Source: a phage
DNA length: 64,000 nt
Strand: one strand, 5' to 3'
Assembly: GCA_033580375.1 (NCBI GenBank)
Contig: GCA_033580375.1_4527.1
This document shows, piece by piece, positions 1,562 through 49,818 of the stretch. Under the pieces are notes generated by a model. It searched no databases. It saw only the letters and a list, made by a program, of their open reading frames with translations, and was not told where the DNA came from. A program made the position numbers and the translations under genes. Within the stretch, counting starts at the first letter, position 1, and each line of letters opens with the position of its first letter.

Positions 1562-4500
1562 ATGGTTGACATCAAACGTAAGTTCAGGGCCGAAGATGGT
1601 CTTGACGCAGGCGGTGATAAGATAGTTAACGTTGCGCTTGCTGACCGCACAGTTGGCACCGATGGCGTGAACGTTGACTTTTTGGTGCAAGAAAACACCG
1701 TACAGAATTATGACGAGACGCGCGCGTATACAAAAGATTTTATTGTTCTTTATGATAATCGTTTTTATCAAGCTTTAAACGATATTCCAGCTCCGGCAGG
1801 CCCTTTCTCTTTGGCTAAATGGAAGGCAACTCGTACAGATGCAGAATGGATTACAGTTCAAGGCGGAGATTTCCAATTATCAGTAGGTAACTCTATCGCG
1901 GTTGATACTTCAGCTGGCACTGATATTAATTTCACTTTGCCTCAAAATCCTTTAGATGGCGATACAGTTATTTTGTCTGATATTGGTGGTAGAGTAGGCT
2001 ATGTAAAAGTTCAAATTACTGCAGAGGCTCAAAGTATTGTAAACTTTAGAGGACAACAGGTTCGTTCAGTTTTAATGACGCACCCAAAATCTAAAATGGT
2101 CTTCATTTTTAGCAACCGCCTATGGCAAATGTATGTTTCTGATTACGAACGTAATGCAGTCACAGTAACTCCTGCTAAGCCATATCAGGCGCAACCTAAT
2201 GATTTTATCATTCGACGTTTTACATCAGCCGCTCCTATTAATATTACATTGCCTCGTAATGCTAATAATGGCGATATTATTAATTTAGTTGATTTAGACA
2301 AATTAAACCCATTATATCACACAATTGTCAAAACTTACGATGATACAACTTCTATACGAGAAGCTGGTGTTCATGTAGCAGAAGGACGTAATACTGCGGA
2401 AGCATTCTTTGTTTATGATTCTGCTAATAGCTTATGGCGTGTTTGGGAAGGTGACCAGAAATCTCGTTTACGTATAGTTCGTAATGATACTGATTTACGC
2501 CCTAATGAAGAAGTTCTTGTTTTTGGAACTAATAATGATACAATCTCAACGGTAAATCTTACTTTGCCTACAGATATTTTGTCTGGTGATACTGTTAAAA
2601 TATCGTTGAATTATATGCGTAAAGGGCAAACTGTAAAAATTAAAGCTGCTGAAGGCGATACAATTGCTAGCAGTATTTCTTTATTACAGTTCCCAAAACG
2701 TTCGGAGTATCCACCTGATGCACAATGGGTTTCTGTTAGTGAGCTGGAATTTAATGGTGATACTTCGTATGTACCTGTACTTGAGTTAGCTTATATAGAA
2801 GATTATTCATCTGAAACAAAATATTGGGTAGTTCAACAAAACACCGTAACCGTCGAACGAGTCGATGCATCGAGCAATACCACTCGAGCTCGTTTAGGTG
2901 TTATTGCTCTTGCTTCTCAAGCGCAAGCAAATGTCGATTTAGAAAATGCTCCTGGTAAAGAACTGGCTATTACTCCGGAAACATTAGCAAATCGTACAGC
3001 AACTGAAACTCGTCGTGGTATTGCTCGTATTGCAACAACTGCACAAGTTAACCAGAATACCGATTTTGCATTCCAAGACGACTTGATTATTTCTCCTAAG
3101 AAATTGAACGAACGTACAGCAACTGAAACCCGTAGAGGTGTTGCTGAAGTTGCAACTCAGGCTGAAACTAATGCTGGCACAGATGATACCACTATTATTA
3201 CTCCTAAGAAATTGGATGCCCGTCAAGGTTCTGAAGTTTTATCTGGTATTGTAAAATACACATCTACGACTGGTACTACAGCTGCTACTATTCGTGGTAA
3301 TGCTGGGACTAACGTTTATAACAAAGCCGTAGATAATTTAACTATTTCTCCAAAGGCTCTTGACCAGTATAAAGCTACCCCTACTCAACAGGGCGCAGTA
3401 ATTCTTGCTATTGAAAGTGAAGTTATCGCTGGCGAATCACAAGCCGGTTGGGCTAATGCTGTAGTGACCCCTGAAACTCTGCATAAGAAAACTTCTACTG
3501 ATGGACGTATTGGTTTAATTGAAATTGCTACGCAAGCAGAAACTAACACTGGAACTGATTATACTAGAGCAGTAACGCCTAAGACGTTAAATGATAGGAA
3601 AGCTACGGAAGGATTATCCGGCATAGCCGAAATTGCTACGCAAGTTGAATTTGATACTGGAACTGACGATACTCGTATCTCGTCTCCACTGAAAATTAAA
3701 ACTCATTTTGATTCTTCTGACCGTACCAGTGTTAATTCTGATTCCGGACTTATTGAAGAAGGAACCTTGTGGAACCATTATACTCTTGATATTTCTAAAG
3801 CAAATGAAACACAACGTGGTACACTTCGTGTAGCGACCCAAGCAGAATCTAATGCAGGAACTTTAGATGATGTTCTTATTACTCCTAAAAAGCTTTTAGG
3901 GACTAAGTCCACTGAAACGTCTGAAGGCGTGATTAAGGTTGCTACTCAGGCTGAAACTGTAACAGGAACTTCTGCTAATACTGCTGTATCTCCTAAGAAT
4001 TTAAAATGGATTGTCCAGAATGAACCAACATGGGCTGCTACTACTGCAATAAGAGGTTTTGTTAAAACTTCATCTGGTTCAATCACATTCGTTGGTAATG
4101 ATACAGTTGGTTCAACACAACCTTTAGAATCATATGAAAAAAATAGCTATGCTATATCTCCATATGAATTAAACCGTGTACTTGCTAACTATTTGCCATT
4201 GAAAGCTAAAGCCGTAGATAGTAATCTGTTAGATGGTCTAGATTCTCTTCAGTTCATCCGTAGAGACATCGACCAGACGGTTAATGGTTCTTTAAGTCTT
4301 ACTAAACAGACCAACCTGAGTGCTCCTTTAGTATCTACAAGCACTGCTTCTTTTGGGTCCGAAGCATCTGTTACTCGTAGATTAACTCTTAATGACTCTA
4401 GCGGTTCTGAAATAGTTTTCACTAAAGGAACCCAATCTCTTAGTAATAAAGAGAATTTCGTTGTTAGAGCATGGGGTAATAGCGCTACAGATGGTGCCCG

Positions 4501-20033: not shown

Positions 20034-22247
20034 TTATTTGGCTGCTTCCACAGCCTTCATGAATTTAACGATTTGAGCGACCTGTTCTTTGGAAAGAGTA
20101 CCACGTCGTCCCATGTATTCTGACACAATATGATAATTGGTTTCGAATTCAATAACCATTTTATCATCATTATCGTAAGCATTATCTTTAAGCTTATCGA
20201 AAATTTTAGCACACAATTCTAACTTTTTATTCAGTTCTCTGTTAGTAGCACCTGAGAATCGATTCCATCCCCAACGATTATTTACTGTTGAGAGTTTTGC
20301 AAAATCTTTACTGATTTCTTTGTTTTTAGAGCTAAAATACTTACTAAGGAAGTTAAGCTCTTCATTACGAGTAATATGATTCAAATAAGGTTGAGCTCTA
20401 CGACTTGGTGATACATACTCATCATAATCCACTTTATCGATTAGCGTAATATAGTCGTTAATTGATTTTTCGAACAAGCATTCTACTTCGCCAAGTTTAC
20501 GAACTTTCTTAGCAATCTGTGGACGAACTACAGTGAACTCTTTAATACCTGACAAATCAGCAATACGGGTCAAGAAATTGGAGTCATAGTTCAACCAACC
20601 TTTATCTGCGTCAAGACATTCAGCATTAGAACGATTACGAACTATAGCATAACCTTGGATTTCATCTGCTTCACTTGCCGGAATAAAGAGGTCTTCTGAT
20701 ACCCAAACATCGTTTTCATTCTTAAAGAATCGATGAGCACTTGGCGATTTAGGACGAGGCTCATTAGTCCGTTTCCTGACTTCAATCCATGGCTTAACGA
20801 TTTGTAAAAGCTCTGAAGTCTTGTACATGTTAATGTTGTCGCCATCAAAGATAACTTTAAGGCGTTCCAGAAGTTTCATTGCATCTTCGTCTGTAGGGTC
20901 AACGAATAGTACGCTTTTACCAAAACCGCGTGGAACTTTACCGGTTAATTTAACCTCGTCTTTAGACATTTCAATTGAATTAAGAGCTCGCATTAATGGA
21001 ACGCGTCCCTTAACGTCGTCAATAACAATTTCAACGTTTTTAATGTTAATGCCAATCAGGCTGTTAATTGAAATAGTTGATGATGAGCTACCACTTTCAC
21101 GAATACGACGAAGACGAGGGGATTCAACGATATCGTATACGACGCCAAGATTACACCACTCAGGCCCCATTTTAAAACGTTTGTACAACTCAGAATAAGT
21201 TAGTTGTTCTTTAGAGTATTTCAGTGATTCAATATTAGACCCGGCCTTTTCCATGTATTTACGAGCGGTATAACCAAGAGAATCAATTTCACGGAACACA
21301 TGACGTGGGTATTTACAATCAATCCATTTCTTAGAATCTTCAGCGAACAATTTAGCATCGATTTCTGCAACGCGTTTATGGATATTTGCTACTGTACGTT
21401 TATCAAATGACAACGCTTCACGAGACGGAGCTACATCTAGTTCACCCATAGGGAATTTAATATAAGCTGTAGTGCATCGCGTCATCATCCATGTTTGTTC
21501 TTTAATAACACTTCCGATTGGATATACAATACCGCCGTAAACAGCCATGATATTACCACGTTCACCCCATGGAGCTTCCTTGGCCAAATATACATCGTCA
21601 AATTCTGGGAAGTATTTGATATCTTTAACACCACGAACTTCTGCAATATCACCGAGAGGACGCATAACATAAGCAATTTCGGATGCGAACTTTTCAAAAT
21701 CTTCTGGGTTAACCGGCACAACTACTTCTACACCCGTACGGTCATCAGGGCCCATTTTATCTACGAAGGTTGGCTTAATTTGTGGACCTGTGTCATCTTG
21801 GTAGATTACGTAACCACGAACTTCGCCGTTGTGATAAGACGTAAGGTTAAACGTATCGGTATATGCTAGTGGAGCTTTAGAGCCTAGACCGAATCCACCA
21901 ATGAAATCGTTACTCGATGTTTTAGTTGAAGCAAAATATGAGTTATAGATTCCTGGCTCTTCGTCATTACCTCGAATAGTGAAATCACTCATACCAGGAC
22001 CAAAGTCTCGAACTACAAAGCGTGGGTCTAAACGACCTGGAGCCTGAACAATAAACTTATCAGTGCAACCATTAAGAATTTGTCCATCAATACAGTTTGT
22101 GATTAATTCACGTACACAAGCCAATTCTTTGTTTGTATAAAGGTCATTAGACAAAATCTTATAAACTTTACTATTGCCTTGAATAGTGAATGCCGTGCTC
22201 TTACCGCCTGAACCAATAATCGTTTCTTTAGCCGTTTCAATAATCAT
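20034..22247 (-). CDS. rIIA: rIIA protein
   Basis: 737 aa (T4 725 aa); position upstream of rIIB; N-terminal GHKL/GyrB-like ATPase-type region. Confidence 0.85.
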   Translation of the reverse strand: MIIETAKETIIGSGGKSTAFTIQGNSKVYKILSNDLYTNKELACVRELITNCIDGQILNGCTDKFIVQAPGRLDPRFVVRDFGPGMSDFTIRGNDEEPGIYNSYFASTKTSSNDFIGGFGLGSKAPLAYTDTFNLTSYHNGEVRGYVIYQDDTGPQIKPTFVDKMGPDDRTGVEVVVPVNPEDFEKFASEIAYVMRPLGDIAEVRGVKDIKYFPEFDDVYLAKEAPWGERGNIMAVYGGIVYPIGSVIKEQTWMMTRCTTAYIKFPMGELDVAPSREALSFDKRTVANIHKRVAEIDAKLFAEDSKKWIDCKYPRHVFREIDSLGYTARKYMEKAGSNIESLKYSKEQLTYSELYKRFKMGPEWCNLGVVYDIVESPRLRRIRESGSSSSTISINSLIGINIKNVEIVIDDVKGRVPLMRALNSIEMSKDEVKLTGKVPRGFGKSVLFVDPTDEDAMKLLERLKVIFDGDNINMYKTSELLQIVKPWIEVRKRTNEPRPKSPSAHRFFKNENDVWVSEDLFIPASEADEIQGYAIVRNRSNAECLDADKGWLNYDSNFLTRIADLSGIKEFTVVRPQIAKKVRKLGEVECLFEKSINDYITLIDKVDYDEYVSPSRRAQPYLNHITRNEELNFLSKYFSSKNKEISKDFAKLSTVNNRWGWNRFSGATNRELNKKLELCAKIFDKLKDNAYDNDDKMVIEFETNYHIVSEYMGRRGTLSKEQVAQIVKFMKAVEAAK

Positions 22248-22259
22248 ATTTTTCTCTCA

Positions 22260-22460
22260 TCACAAGTTACGTTTAAAAATTTCTGCTACTTCAAGAAGTT
22301 CTTCTTTAGTGGCTGTATCGGTTTGTATTTTATATCGAATTTCTTTAAAGCGTTCTTTAAAGGACTCTGCTGACTCGATATCAAAAAATCTTTGGATAAG
22401 CCGGAATTCCCGGAGCACTGCTTTATCAAAAAGTTCCAAGTCCACGTTATATGTTCTCAT
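22260..22460 (-). CDS. hypothetical protein (rIIA.1 position)
   Basis: 66-aa track ORF immediately upstream of rIIA. Confidence 0.45.
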   Translation of the reverse strand: MRTYNVDLELFDKAVLREFRLIQRFFDIESAESFKERFKEIRYKIQTDTATKEELLEVAEIFKRNL

Positions 22461-22552
22461 AATATTCTCTTCAGTAGATTCCTAGGGCACTATTACTAAA
22501 GACCATATAATCTATCATCTTATGTGTAATAGCGCCTCAGGCGATTCAGGAT

Positions 22553-23653
22553 TTACGCTGTGAAGATTTTATCCCACATTGCAACAACTGCATCTCGGTT
22601 ATACTTCTTCCATACTGCTTCAGCACGTTTAACTCGAGCTTCGTACGTGTCAGTGAATTCTAATACAGCTTTTGTGTAAAGCGCAACTACTTCTTTCTTA
22701 GGAGTAGAGGAATCAATTTCTACACGCACAGTATCTGGGTCATATTCGAATGTCGCATGCGGATAATCCTTAAAAACTAACTGAATTACAGGGACACCTT
22801 TAGAGATGGCTTCAATAGAACTATTCTCTACCGTACCCGTGTCAGGACACGTATTAATAAGTGCTTTAGCTGTTTTAAGACGTTCCATGATTTCACTGTG
22901 TGGAGCATCAATAATAACAGGATACTTAGCTGGTGGTGCCCATTTGCTTGGACAATAACCAATACCATTTTCGCCTAGTGCTTTAATCGCTTCAAGAGCA
23001 ACATCAGTACGACGCATCTTAGTGTCATAACGTTGAGCACTAATAATCAAATCAGTTGCTGGAAGAACTTCAGGTTTCTCATTCAAACAAATAACCGGAT
23101 AATCTTCGGCTTCAAACAACGGATTTGCTCGCCAATAATCATAATCAATTTTGTCAGTCAGACCCGAAGTCATATAACAATATTTACGTTCAAATTCACG
23201 GAAGGCTTTAGTAGGAGCATAACTCTTACCACCATTCTTATGAATTTGAATAGTCTGGTCCCAAATTTGAACAATGCCACGAGATACCGGTTCAAATGGT
23301 GTTGCCATAAAATTCTTATGAACTTTAGAGAGACCTGCGTCTTTAATTGCCTGAACGGTTAGTTTGGTCGGTTCCATTGTAACAACGAAATCGTACTCAT
23401 TAATGCCGGCTAGTTCAACAATCTTACGAGCCATAGTATAACTCATACCTAGACTGAATTTAGTCAGATGACCAACAGGATGGTGTGTAACTTTCCAATC
23501 ACCAAATGTGTCATTATCAAAACCAATATAATCAATATCAGCACCGATGGACACAAGATATTTCAACACATTTAAATGTACTGCTTCAAGACCACCTTGT
23601 ACACGCTCTGGGTTAAACGGGACTGCGCGAGATGGGATAAACATAACTTTCAT
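22553..23653 (-). CDS. Putative GT-B-fold glycosyltransferase (candidate DNA hmC glycosyl/arabinosyl-transferase)
   Basis: 366 aa at the rIIA-39 junction where T4 carries gene 60/mobA; C-terminal E..SIEAISKGVPVIQ resembles the GT1/GT4 E-x7-E donor-binding region; size typical of GT-B enzymes. Confidence 0.5.
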   Translation of the reverse strand: MKVMFIPSRAVPFNPERVQGGLEAVHLNVLKYLVSIGADIDYIGFDNDTFGDWKVTHHPVGHLTKFSLGMSYTMARKIVELAGINEYDFVVTMEPTKLTVQAIKDAGLSKVHKNFMATPFEPVSRGIVQIWDQTIQIHKNGGKSYAPTKAFREFERKYCYMTSGLTDKIDYDYWRANPLFEAEDYPVICLNEKPEVLPATDLIISAQRYDTKMRRTDVALEAIKALGENGIGYCPSKWAPPAKYPVIIDAPHSEIMERLKTAKALINTCPDTGTVENSSIEAISKGVPVIQLVFKDYPHATFEYDPDTVRVEIDSSTPKKEVVALYTKAVLEFTDTYEARVKRAEAVWKKYNRDAVVAMWDKIFTA

Positions 23654-23679
23654 AATTAAGCCTTATTAAAATTAAAATG

Positions 23680-23697
23680 AAGCTCCCGAAGGAGCTT
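23680..23697 (-). promoter_or_regulatory. RNA hairpin (AGCUCC-UUCG-GGAGCU) overlapping gene 39 stop, 26 nt before glycosyltransferase start
   Basis: Perfect stem with UUCG loop; short U-rich tract after; too close to downstream ATG for a separate promoter, so read-through or attenuation likely. Confidence 0.4.
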
Positions 23698-25513
23698 AGG
23701 ACATCCATTCTTTACGAAGTTCTGAATCATCACCCAACAACATTTCAAAGAGTTCTTTCCAATTTTCAGGAAGTTTAACTACGTCGTACACAGGGTTTTG
23801 AATCATTTCACGATATTCTGACTTTTCAAGGGAGCCCAATCCCTTGATGTATCGAATACTATGCTTAGGCAGTGTATCTTTAGCTTCTTCATACTCAGCT
23901 ACAGTATAAAACCATTTTTGAGATTTGCCAATTTGTGCAATAATTACAGGCGTTTTAACGAAGCGAATACGTCCTTGTTCAAACAATTCAGGCCAATTAC
24001 TAAAGAAAGCAAGCAAAGCCGGATAAATACTTCCAAGGCCGTCATGATCGGCATCGGTCATAATTGCAATATTACGATAGTTCGTATTCTCTGCCTTTTC
24101 ACCAAGAATAAGACCTGTGATAGCACAGATATCAAAGAGCTCTTTGTTCTTCATCATATCAGCATATGACATACCCCAGCTATTCATCACCTTACCACGT
24201 AATGGGAATCCACCGTGTAGTTCACGGTCACGAACATCAATGAGATAACCAATTGCCGAATCACCTTCTGTTAAAAACAATGTCGTATCTGCATCTTTAC
24301 CACATTGGTTAGCTTTAATATGCTTATGAACCTTAGCTTTAGTTGCCTTTTTAGCGGCTTTAGTTTCTGCAGCCTTTTCTGCCGCTAATTTACGAGCTAA
24401 TGCTGCTTCAACAATAGGCATAATCAAGGCTTCGTTTTTAAGAAGTGCCTGAGCAATTTTCTTAGCATCTAATTGGATATGATTACGAATATCACCATAC
24501 GTTGACGTTAAACGTTCTTTAGTCTGAGAATCAAAACGCATGTTACTCATGTCTCTAATAAACATCAACATTGTGAGGCATTCTTTAACACGAGCTTTAG
24601 TGACTTCAATACCCTTATATTTCTTTTTAATACCGGGCAAAAGATGTTCGCAGATATCATCCATTACACATTCAACATGATGACCACCATTTTTAGTATG
24701 GATGTTATTCACATAAGTTAAATGACGGAAGCCATCTGGTGATGTTGTGAATGCTATAGAGACTTTATCATTTTCTTGAATGATGTTATCTTCACCAAAT
24801 TGTTTAGCAAATCGTTTAAAATTGCCATCAACCTTTTTACCATTAAATGTGAACTTGATATCAGGATAAACGACTGCCAATGTTTGAAGTCGGTCTAAAG
24901 TAATATCTAAATAAATTTGAGATAAATTATGCTCTTCAAATGAAGTGAAATCAGGAGTGAAGATTACTTTAGTGCCTTTACCTTTAGATTTCTTAGAAGA
25001 CCATGATTTGTTTTCCATTCCGTTTGAACAGTTAACAGTGATTTCATTTTCACCATCTGACGTGATGCCTGTAAACAACGTAGAGAAGATATTAGTTAAA
25101 CTACTCCCGACGCCGTTCATACCACCAGTCTTGCGTTCAGAGTCATCACCAAAGTTACCACCGGCCTTTGGAATAGTCCAGGCTGCTACAGGCCCAGGAA
25201 TTTGTTCGCCCGTTTGGTCGGTAACTAAACCTTGAGGAATACCACGTCCGTTATCTTCCACCGAAACTTGATTATTTTTAATTTGCACATCAATTTTATT
25301 TGCAAACTTAAATGATGTACGAATAGCTTCATCAACCGAGTTGTCAATAATCTCATCGATTAATTTTACCAGACCAGGAACATATTCAACTTGTTGATAT
25401 TTACCAAACAAAAAACGTTCATGTGCTTCTTTAGCAGAAGAACCAATATACATACCACTACGTTTCTTAATATGTTCTACATCTGACAATACCTTAATTT
25501 CATTTTTAATCAT
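23696..25513 (-). CDS. 39: DNA topoisomerase II large subunit gp39 (GyrB-like ATPase), uninterrupted 39+60 form
   Basis: 605 aa; GyrB-type ATPase motifs (E..DNS.DE, DNGRGIP, GG.FGDD, GG.NGVGSSL) and TOPRIM-like C-terminal part; T4 has this split into 39 (516 aa) plus 60. Confidence 0.9.
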   Translation of the reverse strand: MIKNEIKVLSDVEHIKKRSGMYIGSSAKEAHERFLFGKYQQVEYVPGLVKLIDEIIDNSVDEAIRTSFKFANKIDVQIKNNQVSVEDNGRGIPQGLVTDQTGEQIPGPVAAWTIPKAGGNFGDDSERKTGGMNGVGSSLTNIFSTLFTGITSDGENEITVNCSNGMENKSWSSKKSKGKGTKVIFTPDFTSFEEHNLSQIYLDITLDRLQTLAVVYPDIKFTFNGKKVDGNFKRFAKQFGEDNIIQENDKVSIAFTTSPDGFRHLTYVNNIHTKNGGHHVECVMDDICEHLLPGIKKKYKGIEVTKARVKECLTMLMFIRDMSNMRFDSQTKERLTSTYGDIRNHIQLDAKKIAQALLKNEALIMPIVEAALARKLAAEKAAETKAAKKATKAKVHKHIKANQCGKDADTTLFLTEGDSAIGYLIDVRDRELHGGFPLRGKVMNSWGMSYADMMKNKELFDICAITGLILGEKAENTNYRNIAIMTDADHDGLGSIYPALLAFFSNWPELFEQGRIRFVKTPVIIAQIGKSQKWFYTVAEYEEAKDTLPKHSIRYIKGLGSLEKSEYREMIQNPVYDVVKLPENWKELFEMLLGDDSELRKEWMS

Positions 25514-25535: not shown

Positions 25536-25562
25536 ATTCTATCATCCGAAATCTAAAGCAAA
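25536..25562 (-). promoter_or_regulatory. Candidate MotA-dependent middle promoter for gene 39 (MotA box TTTGCTTTA, 12 nt, TAGAAT)
   Basis: Minus strand: TTTTTGCTTTAgatttcggatgaTAGAATacc about 23 nt upstream of gene 39 ATG. Confidence 0.4.
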
Positions 25563-43269: not shown

Positions 43270-43818
43270 TTAACGAGCCCATTTGATGATTTCTGTAATC
43301 AAATCATTACGTTCGCTTGCATTAAATCCTATAACTTTGTTAGCACCATCATGATTAAGTAATTGATACGTTTGGATTTTGTTATGAATTGCAAACTCTT
43401 CAAAATGTGAAATGACTGTATTAAAACTGAGTGAAGACAAAGTAATAAGATCGTCTTCAAAACTTTCAGTCATTTCGTTACGTGTTAAAATAATTGTGAA
43501 CACGTCATGGTTTTGGCAAAGACGAACATAATCCTGCTCATAAACATCAAGAACCGAGTCCGCATCTTGTCGAATACGTCCATAAACCCAGTTACTAATA
43601 TATCCACGGTCTAACAGATAAATCTTAGTAGGGTCTAAATAATTCAACATCGTTTCGAAACAACCAACTTCATTTCGAGACTTAACATCGAAACGTCCAT
43701 CAACTGTTCGTTTAGGGAAATCAATCTTTACATATCTTTCACTAATTTCCATTATGACATTAATGAAAGTTGTTTTGCCGGCATTATCTGGGCCATCTAC
43801 TAAAATAATTTTAGCCAT
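43270..43818 (-). CDS. P-loop kinase-like protein (thymidylate/dNMP-kinase fold); function unknown
   Basis: 182 aa; Walker A ILVDGPDNAGKTT near N-terminus, DRGY motif (LLDRGYISNWVYG) like the DRY/DRX motif of nucleoside monophosphate kinases. Occupies the slot of T4 beta-gt. Confidence 0.5.
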   Translation of the reverse strand: MAKIILVDGPDNAGKTTFINVIMEISERYVKIDFPKRTVDGRFDVKSRNEVGCFETMLNYLDPTKIYLLDRGYISNWVYGRIRQDADSVLDVYEQDYVRLCQNHDVFTIILTRNEMTESFEDDLITLSSLSFNTVISHFEEFAIHNKIQTYQLLNHDGANKVIGFNASERNDLITEIIKWAR

Positions 43819-43819
43819 T

Positions 43820-44716
43820 TTATTCCTCGATTACGACATCTTCGTATTTAGGTATATTATACGGCGAAGAAATTAAAGCATTAAAGTAGATGAACTCACC
43901 AAGACCTGGATGGAATACTTCTTCAGGATTTTCGAAATATTGAATCTTCGGACGTCCTTTAAGAATTTGATAGTACTCAGTTTTAGTTGGTTTAAAAATT
44001 CGAATCAGCGCTTCTTCAGGATACTTATTTCTGTCGAAGCTATTATTTGGATCGGTTATATAAAGTGGTTGTCCTAATTGAATTGCACATTCAACCACTT
44101 GTTCAAAATGATAACACGGATCACTAATTCGAAATGGATGAAAAATACCATCTACATGAATAGGAGCCAAATCACCTACAAGACGCTGCATGATGGAAGG
44201 ACGTATAACTTTCTGCGTTACGATAATCTTATTATCTGCGCCAGCGTTAACCAGCACTTCTTTTTGACGTTCATTCAACACAGTAGTTTGAAGTGAACGA
44301 TTAACCGACAACATGTCGGTTTTTAAGAATTCGTCAATATAAAAACGTGGTTTATTAGGGTCTGCAGTGATATTGAAATTGAATTCTACATCAAAAGCGC
44401 CGTCATATCCAGTGATATCTGTGATTAGAAAATCACAATCATAATAAGCAATTAATGAATCAACAACAAATTCATTTTCAGACCAGAAATATTTACGAGT
44501 GTTATACGCGTTATCTTTATACCATAATGGAACAAACTTAAATTCTGGGAAAAGACGTTCACATTCTTTAATATCAGATGCATTACGTGGATATGTAATC
44601 ACATCACCCGGATTAGCACGGTGCAAATGAAGTTGGAAGTTGCCATCCTTAAGGATAGCATACTGTCCAGTTTCATAAGACCGCATACTCAAGATTGGTA
44701 CGCGGAAAATAGCCAT
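43820..44716 (-). CDS. hypothetical protein (298 aa) in beta-gt position; no motif recognised
   Basis: Track ORF tightly packed (2-nt gap to next gene, 1-nt overlap with gene 42 homolog). Confidence 0.4.
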   Translation of the reverse strand: MAIFRVPILSMRSYETGQYAILKDGNFQLHLHRANPGDVITYPRNASDIKECERLFPEFKFVPLWYKDNAYNTRKYFWSENEFVVDSLIAYYDCDFLITDITGYDGAFDVEFNFNITADPNKPRFYIDEFLKTDMLSVNRSLQTTVLNERQKEVLVNAGADNKIIVTQKVIRPSIMQRLVGDLAPIHVDGIFHPFRISDPCYHFEQVVECAIQLGQPLYITDPNNSFDRNKYPEEALIRIFKPTKTEYYQILKGRPKIQYFENPEEVFHPGLGEFIYFNALISSPYNIPKYEDVVIEE

Positions 44717-45432
44717 TAGTCAAGGAATCCTTTAACATAATCAAAATCACGTTCAAACACATGGGCACTTACCATGGTATGAGTATAATCACCAACTTCT
44801 ACACCGCATTCGTTAGCGATATAATGAAGTAATTTTCCTTGGAGATAAAAATCCAACTGCATAACAACAGCACAGTTCTGAGAACGCATATGACAGTGGG
44901 TATAAAGCTTACCATCACGAATATAATAAGTCACTGAGTCAGTACATGGATATTCAAGTGTTTCATCTGAATCAAGCAAAGCCTGATCAGAACTTTCTAG
45001 AATTTGGAACACAACTCTTCGAGAGTTAGGTTTTTCTTTAAGTTCTTTTAGAAGAGCTGGTAATTGAGCCGCAATGCGAGGACCATAGAAAGTGTTGAAG
45101 TTTGCAGGCAAAGCATCTGATTTTGGTTTAGAAATAAATTTAGCGACATTAGGATATGCCTTAAACGCTTCTTCTGCATCAGTACCACCGGAAATCATAA
45201 ACTTCCAGAAGTCTTCGGCATATTCATAAGATATGCGATTAATACGTGGGTCGGTCATTTTGAATGATGATGGAGTGTCAACAACTACTGTCATAGACCC
45301 AATTTCATTACAACGTCCAATACGAGAATCAGTTACGAATTCTGGGTTTTCTAAAATTTCACGATTGACTGCTTTAAATGCGGTTTGAAAATCTGCGGCT
45401 TTGATATATTTCATTGTGTTATGTTTTCCCAT
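44716..45432 (-). CDS. 42: dCMP hydroxymethylase (thymidylate-synthase superfamily), gene 42 homolog
   Basis: 238 aa; catalytic region YPCTDSVTYYIRDGKL...HMRSQN...MQLDFY aligns by eye with T4 gp42 FMCTNTVQYLIRDKKI...NMRSND...FRNDY (Cys148 nucleophile, Asp179 equivalent retained). Confidence 0.7.
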   Translation of the reverse strand: MGKHNTMKYIKAADFQTAFKAVNREILENPEFVTDSRIGRCNEIGSMTVVVDTPSSFKMTDPRINRISYEYAEDFWKFMISGGTDAEEAFKAYPNVAKFISKPKSDALPANFNTFYGPRIAAQLPALLKELKEKPNSRRVVFQILESSDQALLDSDETLEYPCTDSVTYYIRDGKLYTHCHMRSQNCAVVMQLDFYLQGKLLHYIANECGVEVGDYTHTMVSAHVFERDFDYVKGFLD

Positions 45433-45557
45433 GTTTACCTCAATACAATTTATTATATACTCAATTCGTAAAGCTTATTTGAATTTCTTGGCAATGTTGA
45501 TATAACGTAAAGCTTCAGCATCGATACTTCCAAGAACACTATGAAGAAATGCATCAG

Positions 45558-45713
45558 CTTAGTATTCTAATTGAACAGGTTCTTTAATCACTTTAGCCGC
45601 TTTGGTTTCAAACAGGCCCATAAGGGCCTTTTTAAGAATTTGTTCGTTAGTGTTCAGTTTCATAGTCAAAATCTCTTCATTAAGTTTATAATTAAAAGCT
45701 TTTCTAGAAATCA
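45558..45713 (-). CDS. small ORF (~51 aa) translationally coupled (ATGA) to the U32 gene; coordinates approximate
   Basis: Hand translation MISRKAFNYKLNEEILTMKLNTNEQILKKALMGLFETKAAKVIKEPVQLEY; start overlaps U32 stop. Confidence 0.25.
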
Positions 45714-46871
45714 TTCCGGGTACCTCAAAGCGTCATCAGAGTTAGTTATATCAATAATAGATATGGAGTTTTCTGCTAACCCGTTTTTAGATAATTGACG
45801 TTTGTAATATCTTTCACAATATGTACACGTTGACCCACAGATTTCATTAGCACAATCGAAATCCGGATGTCTGAACCACCTTTTTTCTAAAAAGCCATCT
45901 AACAAAGAGGTTTCAATATTTACTGTATGTGAAAACTCAGTCTCATTTTCAAGAGTGAAAATAGTCTCTAAAGGCTTCCACAGTTCTAACAAATTACCTT
46001 CAAACTTTTCAGAAGCGTATGCTTCAAGAACTTTCAAAATGTAGTCTGTGCTACCTGTACGTCCTGAAACTTTGAATTGAGTGATACCAATATCATTATA
46101 AAGTTTCAAATCTTGAGGACGAACAAAACGAGTTCTCAGCCAGTTAAATGGGTCTGTATCACGAGCTTTAATGCAGTGTTGCATTGGATATCCATTTAAG
46201 GATTTAGCATCATCAGCGGTAACATCAGTACTATGGAAAATATAGCAAGAGTCACGATAACTACAATGTGTTGTATACCCTTTACCAGCATTAGAACAGA
46301 ACTCATTTACAAGAACTTCAAATATTATATTGTTCTTATTGCAAAACTCTGCTGCACGCTTCAGGAAAGAAACTGAACGGTTCTTATGAATTCCACAGCA
46401 GACCTTTTTGATATTATATTGGTCATGCAAGTATTTGATTTGAGTTACGGCATCAACATGTAGAATTGTTGAAACTTCAATCTCAATATCTTTATTGACT
46501 TCACGAACAATTTCCATAACAACAGGGTTAGCGATAGTAATACGCCATACACCTATTGACCAAAGATACTGAACATAATCCTGAATAGCTTTCTTCTTCC
46601 ACTCAACTAGTTCTCTTTTTGAACCAGGATTTATCGTGTTGAGTGTATAGTTAAAGCAAATACCTAATTCGTTACAACGTTTAACATAGTCTTCTAACAT
46701 TTTTTTGTCAACGTCAGGAAGCCTAAAATCAGGTCTGGCTGCTACAAAAGCCATTTCTCTTGTAGAGCCATATACTTCGTTTATCAAGCTATTAGGATAA
46801 GTTTTATTGAGCTCTACGATTTTATCAAGAAGAGCTAAATCAAAATTCGTTCCGATTTTAAAAGTATTCAT
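45711..46871 (-). CDS. Peptidase-U32-family protein (RlhA/TrhP/UbiU-like putative oxygen-independent hydroxylase)
   Basis: 386 aa; N-terminal TIM-barrel signature NEVYGS...FVAARPDF...ICFNYTLNTI (cf. U32 DAVY.G...NAR.F...YVTLNTL), central ITIANPVVMEIVRE...EIEVS and Cys cluster EFCSNAGKGYTTHCS, plus C-terminal CANEICGSTCTYC. Confidence 0.6.
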   Translation of the reverse strand: MNTFKIGTNFDLALLDKIVELNKTYPNSLINEVYGSTREMAFVAARPDFRLPDVDKKMLEDYVKRCNELGICFNYTLNTINPGSKRELVEWKKKAIQDYVQYLWSIGVWRITIANPVVMEIVREVNKDIEIEVSTILHVDAVTQIKYLHDQYNIKKVCCGIHKNRSVSFLKRAAEFCNKNNIIFEVLVNEFCSNAGKGYTTHCSYRDSCYIFHSTDVTADDAKSLNGYPMQHCIKARDTDPFNWLRTRFVRPQDLKLYNDIGITQFKVSGRTGSTDYILKVLEAYASEKFEGNLLELWKPLETIFTLENETEFSHTVNIETSLLDGFLEKRWFRHPDFDCANEICGSTCTYCERYYKRQLSKNGLAENSISIIDITNSDDALRYPE

Positions 46872-46929: not shown

Positions 46930-47331
46930 TTATAGATTCGGTTTATACGATTTAAATGTTTCGAATTCGCCTTTATTCATAAGAGCTTTGAATTCGTCAG
47001 GACGCATAGCTTTGTCGTCGATAATCCAATCATATACTGGTTTATGTGTTAGCAAATTATGGTACTTCAAACCAATGTTTTCCAAGTTCTGAATCAGACT
47101 TGGGAGAATGTCAATTGCTATACGACCAGGACCTACTGACTTCATACCACGAGCAGTGTAAAGCGTTATGGTATGCCCTGCATCATACAGGGCATTAATG
47201 GCGGTCACCATTTCGACGTCTGGTTTGAAGTTCGCGTAATCACGATTGTTATTCCATTCCGTGATGCAATCATCGACATCAAAACAAAGATTAAGCATGT
47301 TTTCTACACGGCGCATTAGATTCGTTCCCAT
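46930..47331 (-). CDS. HAD-superfamily phosphatase (KdsC-like sugar-phosphate phosphatase)
   Basis: 133 aa; HAD motif I FDVDDCIT, motif II LYTAR, motif IV YDWIIDD. Confidence 0.6.
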   Translation of the reverse strand: MGTNLMRRVENMLNLCFDVDDCITEWNNNRDYANFKPDVEMVTAINALYDAGHTITLYTARGMKSVGPGRIAIDILPSLIQNLENIGLKYHNLLTHKPVYDWIIDDKAMRPDEFKALMNKGEFETFKSYKPNL

Positions 47332-49001
47332 TGATGAGTGATATCGCCACCGATTGGACGATAGGAAACACCAGTTTCTTTATCAGTTAGTACCCATTTA
47401 CCAGGATTTTTTGTAATCAGAGTAGCCGTTACAGGTTCTGCTACGTCATAACTAATAGAGCCGTCTTGAAGTACACGACCCATGTTACGTAATTGCTTAG
47501 TCAGAAGTTCCATACCTTTATAATATGCGGCTACCGCTTTAAGTGGATTATTCTTGAAATAACCACCTAATGCAATCCAGATAATCGCCACTGCCAAATG
47601 ATGATACTCGTTAAACGAACTCATCTTTCCATATTTGTAAACTAATGGATTGATGTTAATAGTCACATTACAAGTTGTTTCGTCAATAGTAAACTGTCCC
47701 CAGGTCGGATTAGCATTGAATTCATCATAACCTGAAACAGCATAAAGCACTTTAGCTTCATCGTACAATTTTGGCCCGTAAATCTTGGTTTCACCAAAAT
47801 ATCCACGAGGGTCGATAAACTTGACTTCGCCGTTATCAGTAATCATAGTATTACTGAAGTTCGGGTCACCGTGAATAACAGAGTACTGTCCCTGAGAACG
47901 GTTATGATAACGAATAAGGTGTTCTAAAGCTTGTTTCAACATTGGCTTCAGACGTCCAATCTTAGTGTAGTTCACATGTGTGATTTTACCAAATGAATCA
48001 ATCAATGGTTGAATGCTTTCACAACGATCAATAACTTTCGTATAGAATTCTTTAGTGAAATCACGACGAACAGTTTCAGGACTTACAAAATAAATGTCTG
48101 TGCTGAATTTCAGTGCATCTAAAATTGCATCAACAATTTGTGGACGAGCAAGACTTGATTTGGATTTAATATATTCAAATGCTGGCTTACCTTTAATGCG
48201 TTCCATTTCAAAGTTATTTTCATTAACAGAAACTAACTGAGGAACTGAATCTGATTTTACTTTCAAATACCATGAAATCTCATCTTTTTGAAGAGCTCGT
48301 CCCTGTTCTGTTAATGCGAATTTAGTTACAGTTTCTTCACCAATTTCAACTGCATTAAAACTACGATTAAGTTCACGAACTTCATGAGCCTTTTCAAGTT
48401 TAGGCATATCACCTAAATCAATTAGATTCATAAGCTCTGATTTATTGAATGCACTGCCGTAAAGGAATTCTACAAAATCACGTCCTTTACAGTATTCGTG
48501 AATTTCCTCGTCAGTAGAACCCATGTAGAATTCCCAGTCTTTGAACTGATAAATTCCTACAACATTACCGCCTGTTGAACCTACGTTAGTGATATTTTCA
48601 CCATCGAAATTATATCGACATTCATCACCCTTAACATAGATTGCGTTAACATTCCAAGACCATGAACCAAAATCTGGAATAATATCACACCAGTTAACAA
48701 CTACGTTATGGCCGTCTAAATCTTTATGTAATTTAGCAAGAGCATAAGCAGAACCATACGCTTCATCAACTGTACGAATAGTCACATTGAACCCTTCTTG
48801 CTCACAATAAGCTCGAACAGTTTCAGCAAATTTTGAATGAACTACTACAATAATTTCATCTGCACCAAGGTCAGAATAAATTGTATACAAATTGCTCAGA
48901 ATAGTGTCTTGTTTATAGTTCACAAGAACTTTTGGAATATGGTGAGTAATTGGATATAAACGAGTTGCCAGTCCAGCACCAAGAATAACAGCTTTTTTCA
49001 T
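47316..49001 (-). CDS. Bifunctional sugar-1-phosphate nucleotidyltransferase (N-terminal) / sugar kinase (C-terminal, APH/ChoK-like)
   Basis: 561 aa; N-terminus KAVILGAGLATRLYPITHHIPKVLV matches the RmlA/GalU G-x-G-T-R-L signature; C-terminal HGDPNFSNTMITDNGEVKFIDPRGYFG resembles the catalytic loop of aminoglycoside/choline/anomeric-sugar kinases. Confidence 0.7.
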   Translation of the reverse strand: MKKAVILGAGLATRLYPITHHIPKVLVNYKQDTILSNLYTIYSDLGADEIIVVVHSKFAETVRAYCEQEGFNVTIRTVDEAYGSAYALAKLHKDLDGHNVVVNWCDIIPDFGSWSWNVNAIYVKGDECRYNFDGENITNVGSTGGNVVGIYQFKDWEFYMGSTDEEIHEYCKGRDFVEFLYGSAFNKSELMNLIDLGDMPKLEKAHEVRELNRSFNAVEIGEETVTKFALTEQGRALQKDEISWYLKVKSDSVPQLVSVNENNFEMERIKGKPAFEYIKSKSSLARPQIVDAILDALKFSTDIYFVSPETVRRDFTKEFYTKVIDRCESIQPLIDSFGKITHVNYTKIGRLKPMLKQALEHLIRYHNRSQGQYSVIHGDPNFSNTMITDNGEVKFIDPRGYFGETKIYGPKLYDEAKVLYAVSGYDEFNANPTWGQFTIDETTCNVTININPLVYKYGKMSSFNEYHHLAVAIIWIALGGYFKNNPLKAVAAYYKGMELLTKQLRNMGRVLQDGSISYDVAEPVTATLITKNPGKWVLTDKETGVSYRPIGGDITHQWERI

Positions 49002-49041
49002 GTTGAAGTCCTCATTGGTAAGTAGGAGTATTGTACACTAT

Positions 49042-49185
49042 TCTAGTTAAAGCATTCATACTTTGCTTGTAGTCCAATCATAATCCATCCAATTACAAGT
49101 GTTGGAATCATTACTGGAGCCGTTAAGCTCCAGTAGATAGTCATGACAAGCATCAATAGTAAAAGTCCTATTGTTATTGCTTTCA
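49042..49185 (-). CDS. small hydrophobic membrane peptide (~47 aa), ATGA-coupled to the SIS-domain gene; coordinates approximate
   Basis: Hand translation MKAITIGLLLLMLVMTIYWSLTAPVMIPTLVIGWIMIGLQAKYECFN. Confidence 0.3.
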
Positions 49186-49818
49186 TTGCTCGCCTCGTAA
49201 CATGGCACCTAGAGCACCGCCAGGGTGGAACTTAAGGAAATCATTAGAGGTAAATCCACGTTCAGACGAAAGGTTGATAGCAAACGTATCGATAAGCGCT
49301 AACAACAATGTAGTGGACATGGTCGGAGCTAAAGAGTTCTCGTCAACTTCTACCGCGATACCGGTACAGAACGTATAATCAAAAAGAGCTTCGTATTCTT
49401 GCGGAATGTCAGGGTTACAATGTAACAGAATCTGTTTAACCTGAGGACGAATCATACGAAGATGTTTAGCAACACCTATCATTTCTTCAGTCTTACCAGA
49501 ACGACTGATGTGAACTAATACATCATTAGGTGCAATAAATCCTGCGTCGCCATGAGAATAATGCCCAGTGTTCAAATACATGCTAGGAATACCGAGTGAA
49601 GCAAATGTCTCAGAAGCTTTAGTTGCAATATTAGCATTCTTACCAACACCTGTAATAATTACACGACTTTCATAATTACTCAGTCCAGGGCGTCGAAGAG
49701 TTTCAAGAATAGCATTATAACGAGCAGGGTTTTGACTAATTACTTTGGCCATAGCGGCCAAAGAAGAAGCTTGTTTTATGATTGCGTCAATAGCGATAGT
49801 AATAGGAGTAGTTTTCAT
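49183..49818 (-). CDS. SIS-domain sugar-phosphate isomerase (KpsF/GutQ/KdsD-like arabinose-5-phosphate isomerase, no CBS domains)
   Basis: 211 aa; SIS motifs VIITGVGKNANIATKASETFASLGIPS...HGD...DVLVHISRSGKTEEM and C-terminal HPGGALG. Confidence 0.7.
   Translation of the reverse strand: MKTTPITIAIDAIIKQASSLAAMAKVISQNPARYNAILETLRRPGLSNYESRVIITGVGKNANIATKASETFASLGIPSMYLNTGHYSHGDAGFIAPNDVLVHISRSGKTEEMIGVAKHLRMIRPQVKQILLHCNPDIPQEYEALFDYTFCTGIAVEVDENSLAPTMSTTLLLALIDTFAINLSSERGFTSNDFLKFHPGGALGAMLRGEQ

Follow-up and report, generated by a model that had tools for sequence, protein, structure and literature searches.

What does the 366-aa ORF between rIIA.1 and gene 39 transfer, to which acceptor, and at which step of phage DNA modification? 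In the 64,000 nucleotides of phage DNA analysed here (the window), the initial annotation took it for the enzyme that puts the first sugar on hmC. We think it likely that the ORF is instead the chain-extending, second-step DNA beta-arabinofuranosyltransferase of Mosigvirus. In the proposed pathway, dC would be replaced by 5-hydroxy-dC through a ThyA-type synthase (44716-45432), UDP-D-arabinofuranose would be made by the module at 46.9-49.8 kb, and the initial arabinose would be joined to the 5-hydroxyl in alpha linkage by a different GT-B enzyme, GT1 (43820-44716), a reaction that might take place on the mononucleotide. With UDP-Araf as donor, the ORF enzyme would then add another arabinofuranose at O3 of the sugar already in place on DNA, and the product would be beta-D-Araf-(1-3)-alpha-D-Araf-5-hydroxycytosine, which is dominant in Mosigvirus DNA. 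That the enzyme acts second rather than first, and that it makes this linkage, is what we infer as most likely. Other parts of the picture are already known: the glycosyltransferase call was published in 2018 (PMC6024577), and the Bas46 annotation and the crystal structure of the ORF's orthologues are public.

The ORF call confirms a real minus-strand gene at this junction (Table 1). The corresponding place in T4 had been given as that of gene 60 and mobA, and this does not hold. By blastp, T4 gp39 and gp60 are fused in the unsplit gp39 of the window, with T4 gp39 residues 1-473 aligning with residues 1-474 of the window protein and T4 gp60 residues 27-159 with residues 473-605; hence what corresponds to the ORF in T4 is the gap of 54 nt that separates gene 60 from rIIA.1, and the 60.1/mobA insertion does not. 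Base composition gives no signal of horizontal transfer, the GC content of the ORF (38-40%) being unremarkable and like that of the flanking DNA.

Table 1. Features of the glycosyltransferase locus and of the modification cluster, in coordinates of the window.
Feature	Position	Strand	Remarks
rIIA	20034..22247		downstream of the glycosyltransferase gene
rIIA.1	22260..22460		downstream neighbour of the glycosyltransferase gene
Long conserved hairpin	22481..22541	-	in the 92-nt spacer from glycosyltransferase stop to rIIA.1 start; -32.6 kcal/mol, z -4.2
GT-B glycosyltransferase gene, 366 aa	22553..23653	-	ATG start; proposed role, second-step (chain-extending) DNA beta-arabinofuranosyltransferase
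AAGG Shine-Dalgarno-like element	23661..23664	-	8-11 nt 5' of the glycosyltransferase ATG; sequence reading
7-bp hairpin with UUCG tetraloop, then CAUUUUAAUU	23680..23697	-	terminator-like in pattern scan
Gene 39, topoisomerase II large subunit, 605 aa	23696..25513	-	upstream neighbour of the glycosyltransferase gene
MotA-box-like middle-promoter motif (TGCTTTAG...TAGAAT)	25536..25560	-	upstream of gene 39; nearest promoter-like element 5' of the glycosyltransferase gene
Putative nucleotide kinase, 182 aa (RB69 gp45)	43270..43818	-	position, faint dTMP-kinase NCBIfam match, PMC13326640 Table 1
GT-B glycosyltransferase 'GT1', 298 aa (RB69 gp46:47, DLP3 gp79)	43820..44716	-	proposed base-proximal alpha-arabinosyltransferase
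Thymidylate-synthase homologue, 238 aa, 5-hydroxy-dCMP synthase signature	44716..45432	-	Pfam Thymidylat_synt; proposed to supply the acceptor base
Peptidase-U32-family protein, 386 aa (RB69 gp50)	45711..46871	-	Pfam PF01136, E 7e-11; in 222 phage records
HAD-type sugar phosphatase, 133 aa (RB69 gp51, HY126 AfhF)	46930..47331	-	NCBIfam TIGR01689 (capsule biosynthesis phosphatase), E 1.5e-13; PMC13326640
Bifunctional sugar-1-phosphate nucleotidyltransferase + kinase, 561 aa (RB69 ORF53_52c, HY126 AfhE)	47316..49001	-	Pfam NTP_transferase, weak kinase matches
SIS-domain arabinose-5-phosphate isomerase, 211 aa (RB69 gp55)	49183..49818	-	Pfam SIS; PMC13326640

The protein itself is well anchored. 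It is identical to RB69p003 at 361/366 residues (99%) and differs by 6 substitutions in 366 residues (98% identity) from the protein in PDB 9IQZ, an apo structure; the companion entry with UDP, 9IR0, shows by its title ('phage HY126 glycosyltransferase with UDP') that the 98%-identical HY126 protein binds UDP. As judged from sequence, the ORF product is the orthologue of RB69 ORF003c/gp3 (NP_861693), Bas46_0103 and the crystallised HY126 glycosyltransferase, each of them likewise 366 aa long, encoded between gene 39 and rIIA.1, and different from it by five or six conservative substitutions only. Bas46_0103 is annotated as 'putative hmC-arabinosyltransferase'; the hmC acceptor of older annotations was revised to 5-hydroxycytosine by later chemistry (PMC13326640, PMC13390438). 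An AlphaFold2 model of the ORF product built on a 6-sequence alignment (pLDDT 63, poor at residues 115-187) was sufficient for Foldseek, which puts 9ir0 and 9iqz on top, scores many GT-B structures at probability 1.0 and, beyond those two entries, returns GT-B/GT4 enzymes only (BshA, tll1591, PimA, MshA and WaaG; E 1e-9 to 1e-7). A glycosyltransferase fold under structure prediction is thus recovered, in agreement with the UDP crystal structure of the near-identical protein, and the ORF product is a soluble, GT4-like GT-B enzyme with two Rossmann-like domains that binds a UDP-sugar.

The C-terminal region first singled out as a GT-B nucleotide-sugar motif is borne out by this fold and by family conservation: no block of the gp3 family is better conserved than ENSSIEAISKGVPVIQ, residues 276-291, with E276, S279, E281, A282, I283, S284, G286, V287, P288, V289 and Q291 invariant there and G20, G21, R208 and R214 invariant elsewhere. 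The C-terminal domain has no EX7E motif, the spacing being shortened to E276-x4-E281; the second Glu (E281) and the ensuing A-I-S-x-G-x-P-V block are conserved in the family. The profile search suggested at the outset came back empty: the single ORF sequence drew no Pfam match with the cutoff as loose as E<=10 and nothing in NCBIfam at E=0.01, and PHROGs offered only an 'unknown function' family. The GT4 relationship is visible only by fold comparison and transitive searches; remote full-length matches of the family profile (P0073-P0087) carry Glyco_transf_4 and Glycos_transf_1. Two sequence features link the ORF product to the bacterial GT4-type enzymes that are its best structural matches, a GG loop in the N-terminal part and the nucleotide-sugar block E...EA..G.PV in the C-terminal part. 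The ORF product departs from them in its shortened EX7E, in the lack of a direct Pfam or NCBIfam match and in having a DNA-bound sugar as its proposed acceptor; moreover, GT4 enzymes are retaining, whereas the product proposed here is beta-linked (PMC13326640).

The acceptor base is probably 5-hydroxycytosine rather than hmC, to go by the synthase. At the position of E. coli D169 the window's ThyA homologue has N, where T4 gp42 has D, and at N177 it has D, the same combination as in DLP3 gp80; it is 71% identical to DLP3 gp80 and 26% to T4 gp42, in an alignment for which the T4 gp42 and DLP3 gp80 sequences were taken from records. DLP3 gp80 is an experimentally verified 5hodCMP synthase, and D169N is the signature of such synthases (PMC13326640). 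PDB entries 9IQC, 9IR2 and 9IQU are near-identical to the window protein. On the side of the DNA, the RB69 type contains beta-D-Araf-(1-3)-alpha-D-Araf-5-hydroxy-dC (PMC13326640), and papers of 2025-2026 describe arabinosyl-5-hydroxycytosine, not hmC, in Mosigvirus DNA. Because the window homologue matches the DLP3 gp80 signature and RB69-type DNA carries 5-hydroxy-dC, hmC is an unlikely acceptor.

The D169N ThyA homologue, GT1 and the genes for UDP-Araf synthesis are encoded together (43.3-49.8 kb). The NDP-pentose module reported some 20 kb away is present at 45.7-49.8 kb, 22-26 kb from the ORF, and its 561-aa enzyme makes the donor, UDP-arabinofuranose (PMC6024577, PMC13326640). The absence of the T4 glucosyltransferases also stands for beta-gt, which found chance matches only when searched by tblastn against the 64-kb window; for alpha-gt it rests on PMC6024577. 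Inside the module lies a second glycosyltransferase, GT1, that had been overlooked. It holds the place that beta-gt has in T4 and is 46% identical to DLP3 gp79, its start codon shares one base with the synthase stop codon, and as a single sequence it has no Pfam or NCBIfam match; its AlphaFold2 model (pLDDT 93.6) is matched in Foldseek by MshA, tll1591, sucrose-phosphate synthase, PimA and BshA. Descent of gp3 and GT1 from a common duplication was considered and rejected: neither profile-profile comparison nor blastp relates the two families, which are therefore independent GT-B lineages.

Which of the two enzymes acts first is a question for the relatives of gp3. DLP3 gp77 and gp76 match the ORF product over its full length at 43% (E 5e-109) and 40% (E 1e-97) identity, respectively. 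In vitro, RB69 DNA gains a third Araf, donated by UDP-Araf, when gp76 and gp77 are combined, whereas gp76, gp77 and gp79 are each inactive alone and only the combination of gp76 and gp77 is active (PMC13326640); since none of them works singly, step assignments within the gp3/gp76/gp77 family are tentative. RB69 gp3 has been named 'beta-arabinosyltransferase 2' (Lee et al. 2026). Orthology by itself is silent on the linkage that gp3 makes. Nor can a beta-1,3 step be carried over to gp3 through orthology to gp77, a route that we tried and rejected: gp76 and gp77 are 58% identical, nearer to each other than either is to gp3, which branches outside their clade. The DLP3 pair (beta-arabinosyltransferases 2 and 3, gp77 and gp76) and the ORF product have conserved motifs in common, co-occur with GT1, a 5hodCMP synthase and UDP-Araf genes, and are proposed extenders of the arabinose chain on DNA. 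In DLP3, two paralogues sit inside the cluster and the DNA bears a tri-arabinoside, whereas the window phage carries a single copy, relocated to the gene 39/rIIA.1 junction, and its relatives make a di-arabinoside.

The distribution of the family speaks more directly to the step. The gp3 family is limited to phages with the arabinosyl-5hoC pathway (212 records, 268 places in total), with one copy in every non-Acinetobacter record and two in every Acinetobacter-phage record. GT1 occurs in 349 phage records, and it is present where the gp3 family is absent in Klebsiella, Serratia and Yersinia genera, in Dhakavirus and in Shewanella phage Thanatos; in a large protein database the gp3 family makes up 10 clusters and the GT1 family 58. 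The DNA of Thanatos, with no gp3-family copy, is mono-arabinosylated (PMC13326640); that of RB69, NP, Bas46 and Bas47, each with one copy at least 99% identical to the ORF product, is di-arabinosylated (PMC13326640, PMC13390438, PMC12923530); and that of DLP3, with two copies, is tri-arabinosylated (PMC13326640). Because absence and copy number of the family follow the sugar count, and because gp76 and gp77 extend the chain, the ORF product would be a chain extender. The phyletic argument presumes that the phages with GT1 only carry no other, unrecognised transferase.

From the same perspective, it is unlikely that the ORF enzyme is base-proximal and sets the first sugar on the modified cytosine, with GT1 extending the chain or doing something else, as the initial annotation and Thomas et al. 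(2018) had it. This would suit the sole candidate from the HMM searches of 2018 (PMC6024577), a UDP-binding GT-B enzyme as T4 alpha-gt and beta-gt are, and the published in vitro data that we found assign no first step to GT1. However, at least 137 phage records hold GT1, the synthase homologue and the sugar module and yet lack the gp3 family, mono-arabinosylated Thanatos among them; gp3-family copies track the number of extra sugars; the characterised relatives lengthen an existing chain; and across genera the base-modifying gene is coupled to GT1, not to gp3. The original assignment as a DNA sugar transferase therefore survives in part: the fold, the UDP binding and the place of the family in the phage DNA-glycosylation pathway (PMC6024577, PMC13326640, PMC13390438) agree with it, while the hmC acceptor probably gives way to 5-hydroxycytosine, given the D169N synthase, and the first sugar probably falls to GT1.

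Two related suggestions bear on how the ORF enzyme works. Since the nearest structural relatives of gp3 are all retaining GT4 enzymes, yet a beta linkage is assigned to it, one of the two GT-B enzymes would have to invert and the other to retain, given a beta (gp3) and an alpha (GT1) linkage made from the same donor; if gp3 retains, the donor would be beta-configured UDP-D-arabinofuranose and GT1 would be inverting; and gp3 may be physically coupled to GT1, as gp76 is to gp77, in a two-enzyme di-arabinosylation on DNA. We regard this reading as possible, if doubtful. It is quite improbable that the ORF product is inactive alone and works only in a complex with another transferase (GT1 in Mosigvirus), where it might serve for acceptor or DNA binding besides or instead of catalysis. 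The dependence of DLP3 gp76 and gp77 on each other (PMC13326640) would favour such an arrangement, and the several chains per asymmetric unit of the PDB entry (chain H is listed) would allow oligomers, but the nucleotide-sugar motif and the basic and acidic residues that mark active GT-B enzymes (G20, G21, R208, R214, E276 and E281) are invariant in the family, UDP is bound by the 98%-identical protein, and Mosigviruses, with a single family member, have no paralogous partner to offer. That the ORF enzyme sugars something other than phage DNA, be it a protein, a small molecule or part of the host envelope, and goes with DNA modification by coincidence, is very hard to credit. Although the enzymes nearest to it in structure use lipids, thiols, pterins and LPS as substrates and its gene stands apart from the modification cluster in Mosigvirus, the family is confined to phages with the pathway, its genes stand in or beside the cluster in Acinetobacter phages and immediately upstream of a GT1 homologue in a metagenomic phage contig, and DNA is what its relatives modify in vitro.

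Like the ORF protein, the T4 alpha- and beta-glucosyltransferases are GT-B enzymes that use a UDP-sugar and act on DNA; they sugar the hydroxymethyl group of the base directly, whereas the ORF enzyme is proposed to act on a base-attached sugar. T2 and T6 possess a beta-1,6-glucosyl-alpha-glucose transferase that makes gentiobiosyl-hmC by placing a second sugar on a sugared cytosine in DNA. The logic is the same, that of an accessory glycosyltransferase that diversifies the modification against host defences, with glucose and 5hmC in the one case and arabinofuranose and 5hoC in the other. By blastp the ORF product has no homology to T4 beta-gt (E=3), and the similarity of its family to alpha-gt is at HHpred level only (PMC6024577). 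Sugar-coated cytosines let T4-like phages evade restriction enzymes and CRISPR and bear on therapeutic phage engineering and on sequencing, and the number of arabinoses alters sensitivity to defence systems; hence the value of knowing which enzyme adds which sugar. What our analysis would add is a correction of the acceptor, to mono-arabinosyl 5-hydroxycytosine from hmC, and of the step, to the second from the first.

The expression of the gene had been ascribed to read-through from the topoisomerase transcript, past a hairpin that overlaps the gene 39 stop 26 nt from the ORF. Both the overlap and the distance are seen in the sequence: the hairpin (AAGCUCC-UUCG-GGAGCUU, 23697..23680 on the minus strand) shares two bases with the stop codon (23698..23696), and 26 nt separate its end from the ATG. 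It appears in the centroid structure, and its 81-nt context is no better folded than shuffles (z -1.0); between the two genes it would serve as a weak terminator-like structure or stabilise the mRNA. Read-through is plausible, the sole upstream MotA-like box preceding gene 39 and the gap between the genes being 42 nt. The MotA-box-like motif has 18 matches in the window against 6.0 expected, and the motif scan places none of them between the start of gene 39 and that of the glycosyltransferase gene; a scan for sigma-70-type promoters (11 matches, 13.7 expected) was not above chance. On these sequence features, the gene is probably co-transcribed with gene 39 on a middle or early transcript, through the weak UUCG hairpin. 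Beyond its 3' end lies the long hairpin of Table 1. An Rfam search of the locus, this element included, found no match, and in the Mosigvirus comparison its variable pair reads A-U, G-U or A-C, which gives no compensatory support either way; the hairpin is kept in RB69, Bas46 and JK45, and T4 is without it.

The ORF between rIIA.1 and gene 39 encodes the orthologue of RB69 gp3 (ORF003c), a DNA arabinofuranosyltransferase already known as an accessory enzyme of Mosigvirus. The initial annotation is a correct re-discovery of an already published gene under an outdated chemical interpretation. Both the reading frame and the C-terminal peptide it quoted (ENSSIEAISKGVPVIQ, residues 276-291) are present. 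Arabinose was found in RB69 DNA and ORF003c nominated as its transferase by custom HMMs, HHpred, and Phyre2, with Gly20, Arg207, and Glu281 singled out (Thomas et al. 2018, PMC6024577); our ORF is identical to ORF003c at 361 of 366 residues. The orthologue in the BASEL phage Bas46 record, at the same position, is labelled “putative hmC-arabinosyltransferase.”

Positions of the features discussed
Feature	Position	Strand	Remark
ORF, 366 codons	22553..23653	minus	glycosyltransferase gene
Gene 39, topoisomerase II large subunit, 605 aa	23696..25513	minus	upstream of ORF
rIIA.1	22260..22460		downstream of ORF
rIIA	20034..22247		downstream of ORF
Hairpin AAGCUCC-UUCG-GGAGCUU	23697..23680	minus	gene 39/ORF gap
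Spacer hairpin	22481-22541	minus	GT stop codon to rIIA.1 start codon
GT1, 298 aa	43820..44716	minus	GT-B model
ThyA homologue, 238 aa	44716..45432	minus	5hodCMP synthase signature
Peptidase-U32-family gene	45711-46871	minus	inside arabinosyl-5hoC module
T4 middle-promoter-like motif	25560..25536	minus	just upstream of gene 39
T4 middle-promoter-like motif	43854-43880	minus	inside GT1 3′ end
T4 middle-promoter-like motif	49030-49054	minus	upstream of UDP-Araf synthesis gene

The protein is a glycosyltransferase, as had been proposed. The profile search recommended at the outset matched no Pfam family, even at E≤10, and no NCBIfam family with the single sequence, and in PHROGs the ORF matches only a family of “unknown function.” The AlphaFold2 model is moderate (pLDDT 63); in Foldseek it ranks PDB 9IR0 and 9IQZ first, followed only by GT-B/GT4 enzymes (BshA, tll1591, PimA, MshA, and WaaG), and remote full-length family matches carry Glyco_transf_4 and Glycos_transf_1. 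The 2 PDB entries, from which the ORF has six differences, are the apo and UDP-containing forms of the “phage HY126 glycosyltransferase.” These crystal structures presumably come from He et al. 2026.

The proposed acceptor, hydroxymethylcytosine (hmC), is probably wrong. The ThyA homologue of the window shares 71% identity with DLP3 gp80, whose activity as a 5hodCMP synthase has been verified by experiment, and 26% with T4 gp42. At the position of E. coli D169, it has N, as does gp80, where T4 gp42 and ThyA have D, and at N177 it has D, like cytosine-specific enzymes; the acceptor pathway is therefore that of 5-hydroxycytosine (5hoC), not hmC. Near-identical crystal structures exist (9IQC, 9IR2, and 9IQU). 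By MS/MS and NMR, RB69 DNA carries beta-D-Araf-(1-3)-alpha-D-Araf-5-hydroxy-dC (Araf, arabinofuranose) and DLP3 DNA a tri-arabinoside, the base being 5-hydroxycytosine, whose mononucleotide form is made by a ThyA homologue (Lee et al. 2026, PMC13326640). Bas46 and Bas47 likewise carry double arabinosylation (PMC12923530), and for phage NP the reported mono:di ratio is 1:4. Deletion of an arabinosyltransferase renders Bas46 sensitive to a defence system, according to a passage of PMC13216743 citing Mahler et al. 2025.

Between gene 42 and uvsX, the position of T4 beta-gt, lies a second GT-B gene, GT1 (equivalent to RB69 gp46:47), whose start codon shares one base with the stop codon of the synthase gene. 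Searches of Pfam, NCBIfam, and PDB sequences gave no match, and GT1 has no solved structure, but the model is confident (pLDDT 93.6), and its Foldseek matches are GT-B glycosyltransferases. GT1 is 46% identical to DLP3 gp79; neither sequence nor profile comparison relates it to the ORF. In the proposal of Lee et al., gp46:47 makes the first transfer and gp3 is “beta-arabinosyltransferase 2” (PMC13326640). In the mechanism we consider best supported, and probable, 5hoC would first receive arabinose from GT1, and the ORF product would then move a second, beta-linked Araf from UDP-Araf onto that GT1-attached arabinose.

Orthology, judged from sequence, cannot tell which linkage gp3 makes: DLP3 gp76 and gp77 are 58% identical, and gp3 branches outside this pair and is therefore co-orthologous to both. 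The main alternative, that the ORF performs the base-proximal transfer, is improbable, and with it that part of the initial proposal; the role as a DNA sugar transferase stands. GT1 is more widespread: it forms 58 database clusters, and the 349 phage records that carry it come from phages of Escherichia (Dhakavirus among them), Klebsiella, Serratia, Yersinia, Proteus, Edwardsiella, Shewanella, and Acinetobacter. By tblastn against 50,697 phage records, the gp3 family is matched in 212, made up of 156 from RB69-type phages of Escherichia or Shigella (≥90% identity) and 56 Acinetobacter-phage records (<60% identity; 55 named Acinetobacter phage plus one Tegunavirus). The family is very narrow, with 10 clusters among 5.8 billion proteins and, at E≤1e-3, 25 profile matches in 1.84 billion representatives; the window itself is ~97% identical to Mosigvirus genomes. 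The published chemistry fits a rule by which the sugars outnumber the gp3-family genes by one: in Thanatos there is 1 sugar and none of these genes, in Mosigviruses there are 2 and one, and in DLP3 3 and two. Copies occur at one place per non-Acinetobacter record and two per Acinetobacter-phage record, since 212 + 56 = 268 places. Both DLP3 members lie inside the modification cluster, and on a metagenomic contig a gp3-family gene is immediately upstream of a GT1 homologue. That the ORF needs a partner enzyme is similarly unlikely. In its favour, DLP3 gp76 and gp77 use UDP-Araf to put a third Araf on RB69 DNA jointly, neither doing so alone (PMC13326640); against it, Mosigviruses have a single family member and so no paralogous partner.

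The locus differs from that of T4 (rIIA, rIIA.1, 60, 60.1, mobA, 39). The gene 39 product aligns to T4 gp39 residues 1-473 and then gp60 residues 27-159 and is therefore unsplit, one protein corresponding to gp39 plus gp60, and the topoisomerase locus lacks the split of gene 60, the bypass element, 60.1, and mobA. Thus, the ORF is an insertion at T4's short gene 60/rIIA.1 gap; the rIIA.1-39 interval was correctly named initially, but not gene 60 and mobA as the exact equivalent. T4-like phages vary in what is inserted at this junction. Dhakavirus JS98 (L010) encodes GT1 and some of the sugar module but no gp3-family gene, and its junction is occupied by 588 unannotated bases (2437-3024) in which ORFs of 107 and 53 aa lie. 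In Shigella phage JK45 (L008, MK962757.1, 2694-3104), a chimeric 136-aa ORF joins the first five codons of rIIA.1 to GT residues 237-366 (100% identical), and the 92-nt spacer then appears a second time; the gene junction thus carries a partial duplication in tandem.

Within the 42-nt gap between gene 39 and the ORF lie a UUCG hairpin, a few U-rich bases, and AAGG as a ribosome-binding element; the hairpin described initially is present, shares two bases with the gene 39 stop codon, and ends 26 nt before the ORF ATG. T4-type middle-promoter motifs (a MotA box, then TAnnnT; scanned as TGCTTNA-N10-14-TANNNT) are enriched three times in the window (18 versus 6.0 expected), with none from the gene 39 start to the ORF; sigma-70-type matches in the scan were not above chance. 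Cotranscription with gene 39, as suggested initially, is plausible, and the motif positions suggest a common middle-mode timing for the topoisomerase-GT unit and the sugar module. The 92-nt spacer that separates the GT stop codon from the start of rIIA.1 folds into a stable hairpin of some length (−32.6 kcal/mol, z −4.2 versus shuffles), kept in RB69, Bas46, and JK45 and absent from T4, with no U-tract after it and no Rfam match.

The most interesting side observation is the peptidase-U32-family gene of the module (also L012, 4992-6502). In the phage-record search, 222 records with Enterobacterales and Shewanella hosts had it at ≥80% identity, and phages of Acinetobacter, a strict aerobe, lacked it. 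Its RB69 orthologue is listed only as a “sugar or heterocycle reductase” in the pathway paper, which makes no mention of U32, prephenate, or an anaerobic route (PMC13326640). The gap between it and the ThyA homologue (45433-45710) has only 51-aa and 33-aa ORFs, neither similar to the chorismate mutase at the same position in Erwinia phage Virsaitis27, where a true chorismate mutase gene (CM_2, E 1.7e-11) comes after the U32 gene and immediately precedes that of the ThyA-type hydroxylase. The U32-family enzyme TrhP hydroxylates C5 of uridine in tRNA in a reaction that depends on prephenate and needs no oxygen (PMC6599085). Together, this chemistry, the chorismate mutase neighbour, and the host distribution suggest an anaerobic route to the hydroxylated pyrimidine, and the U32 gene may provide one to 5-hydroxycytosine.
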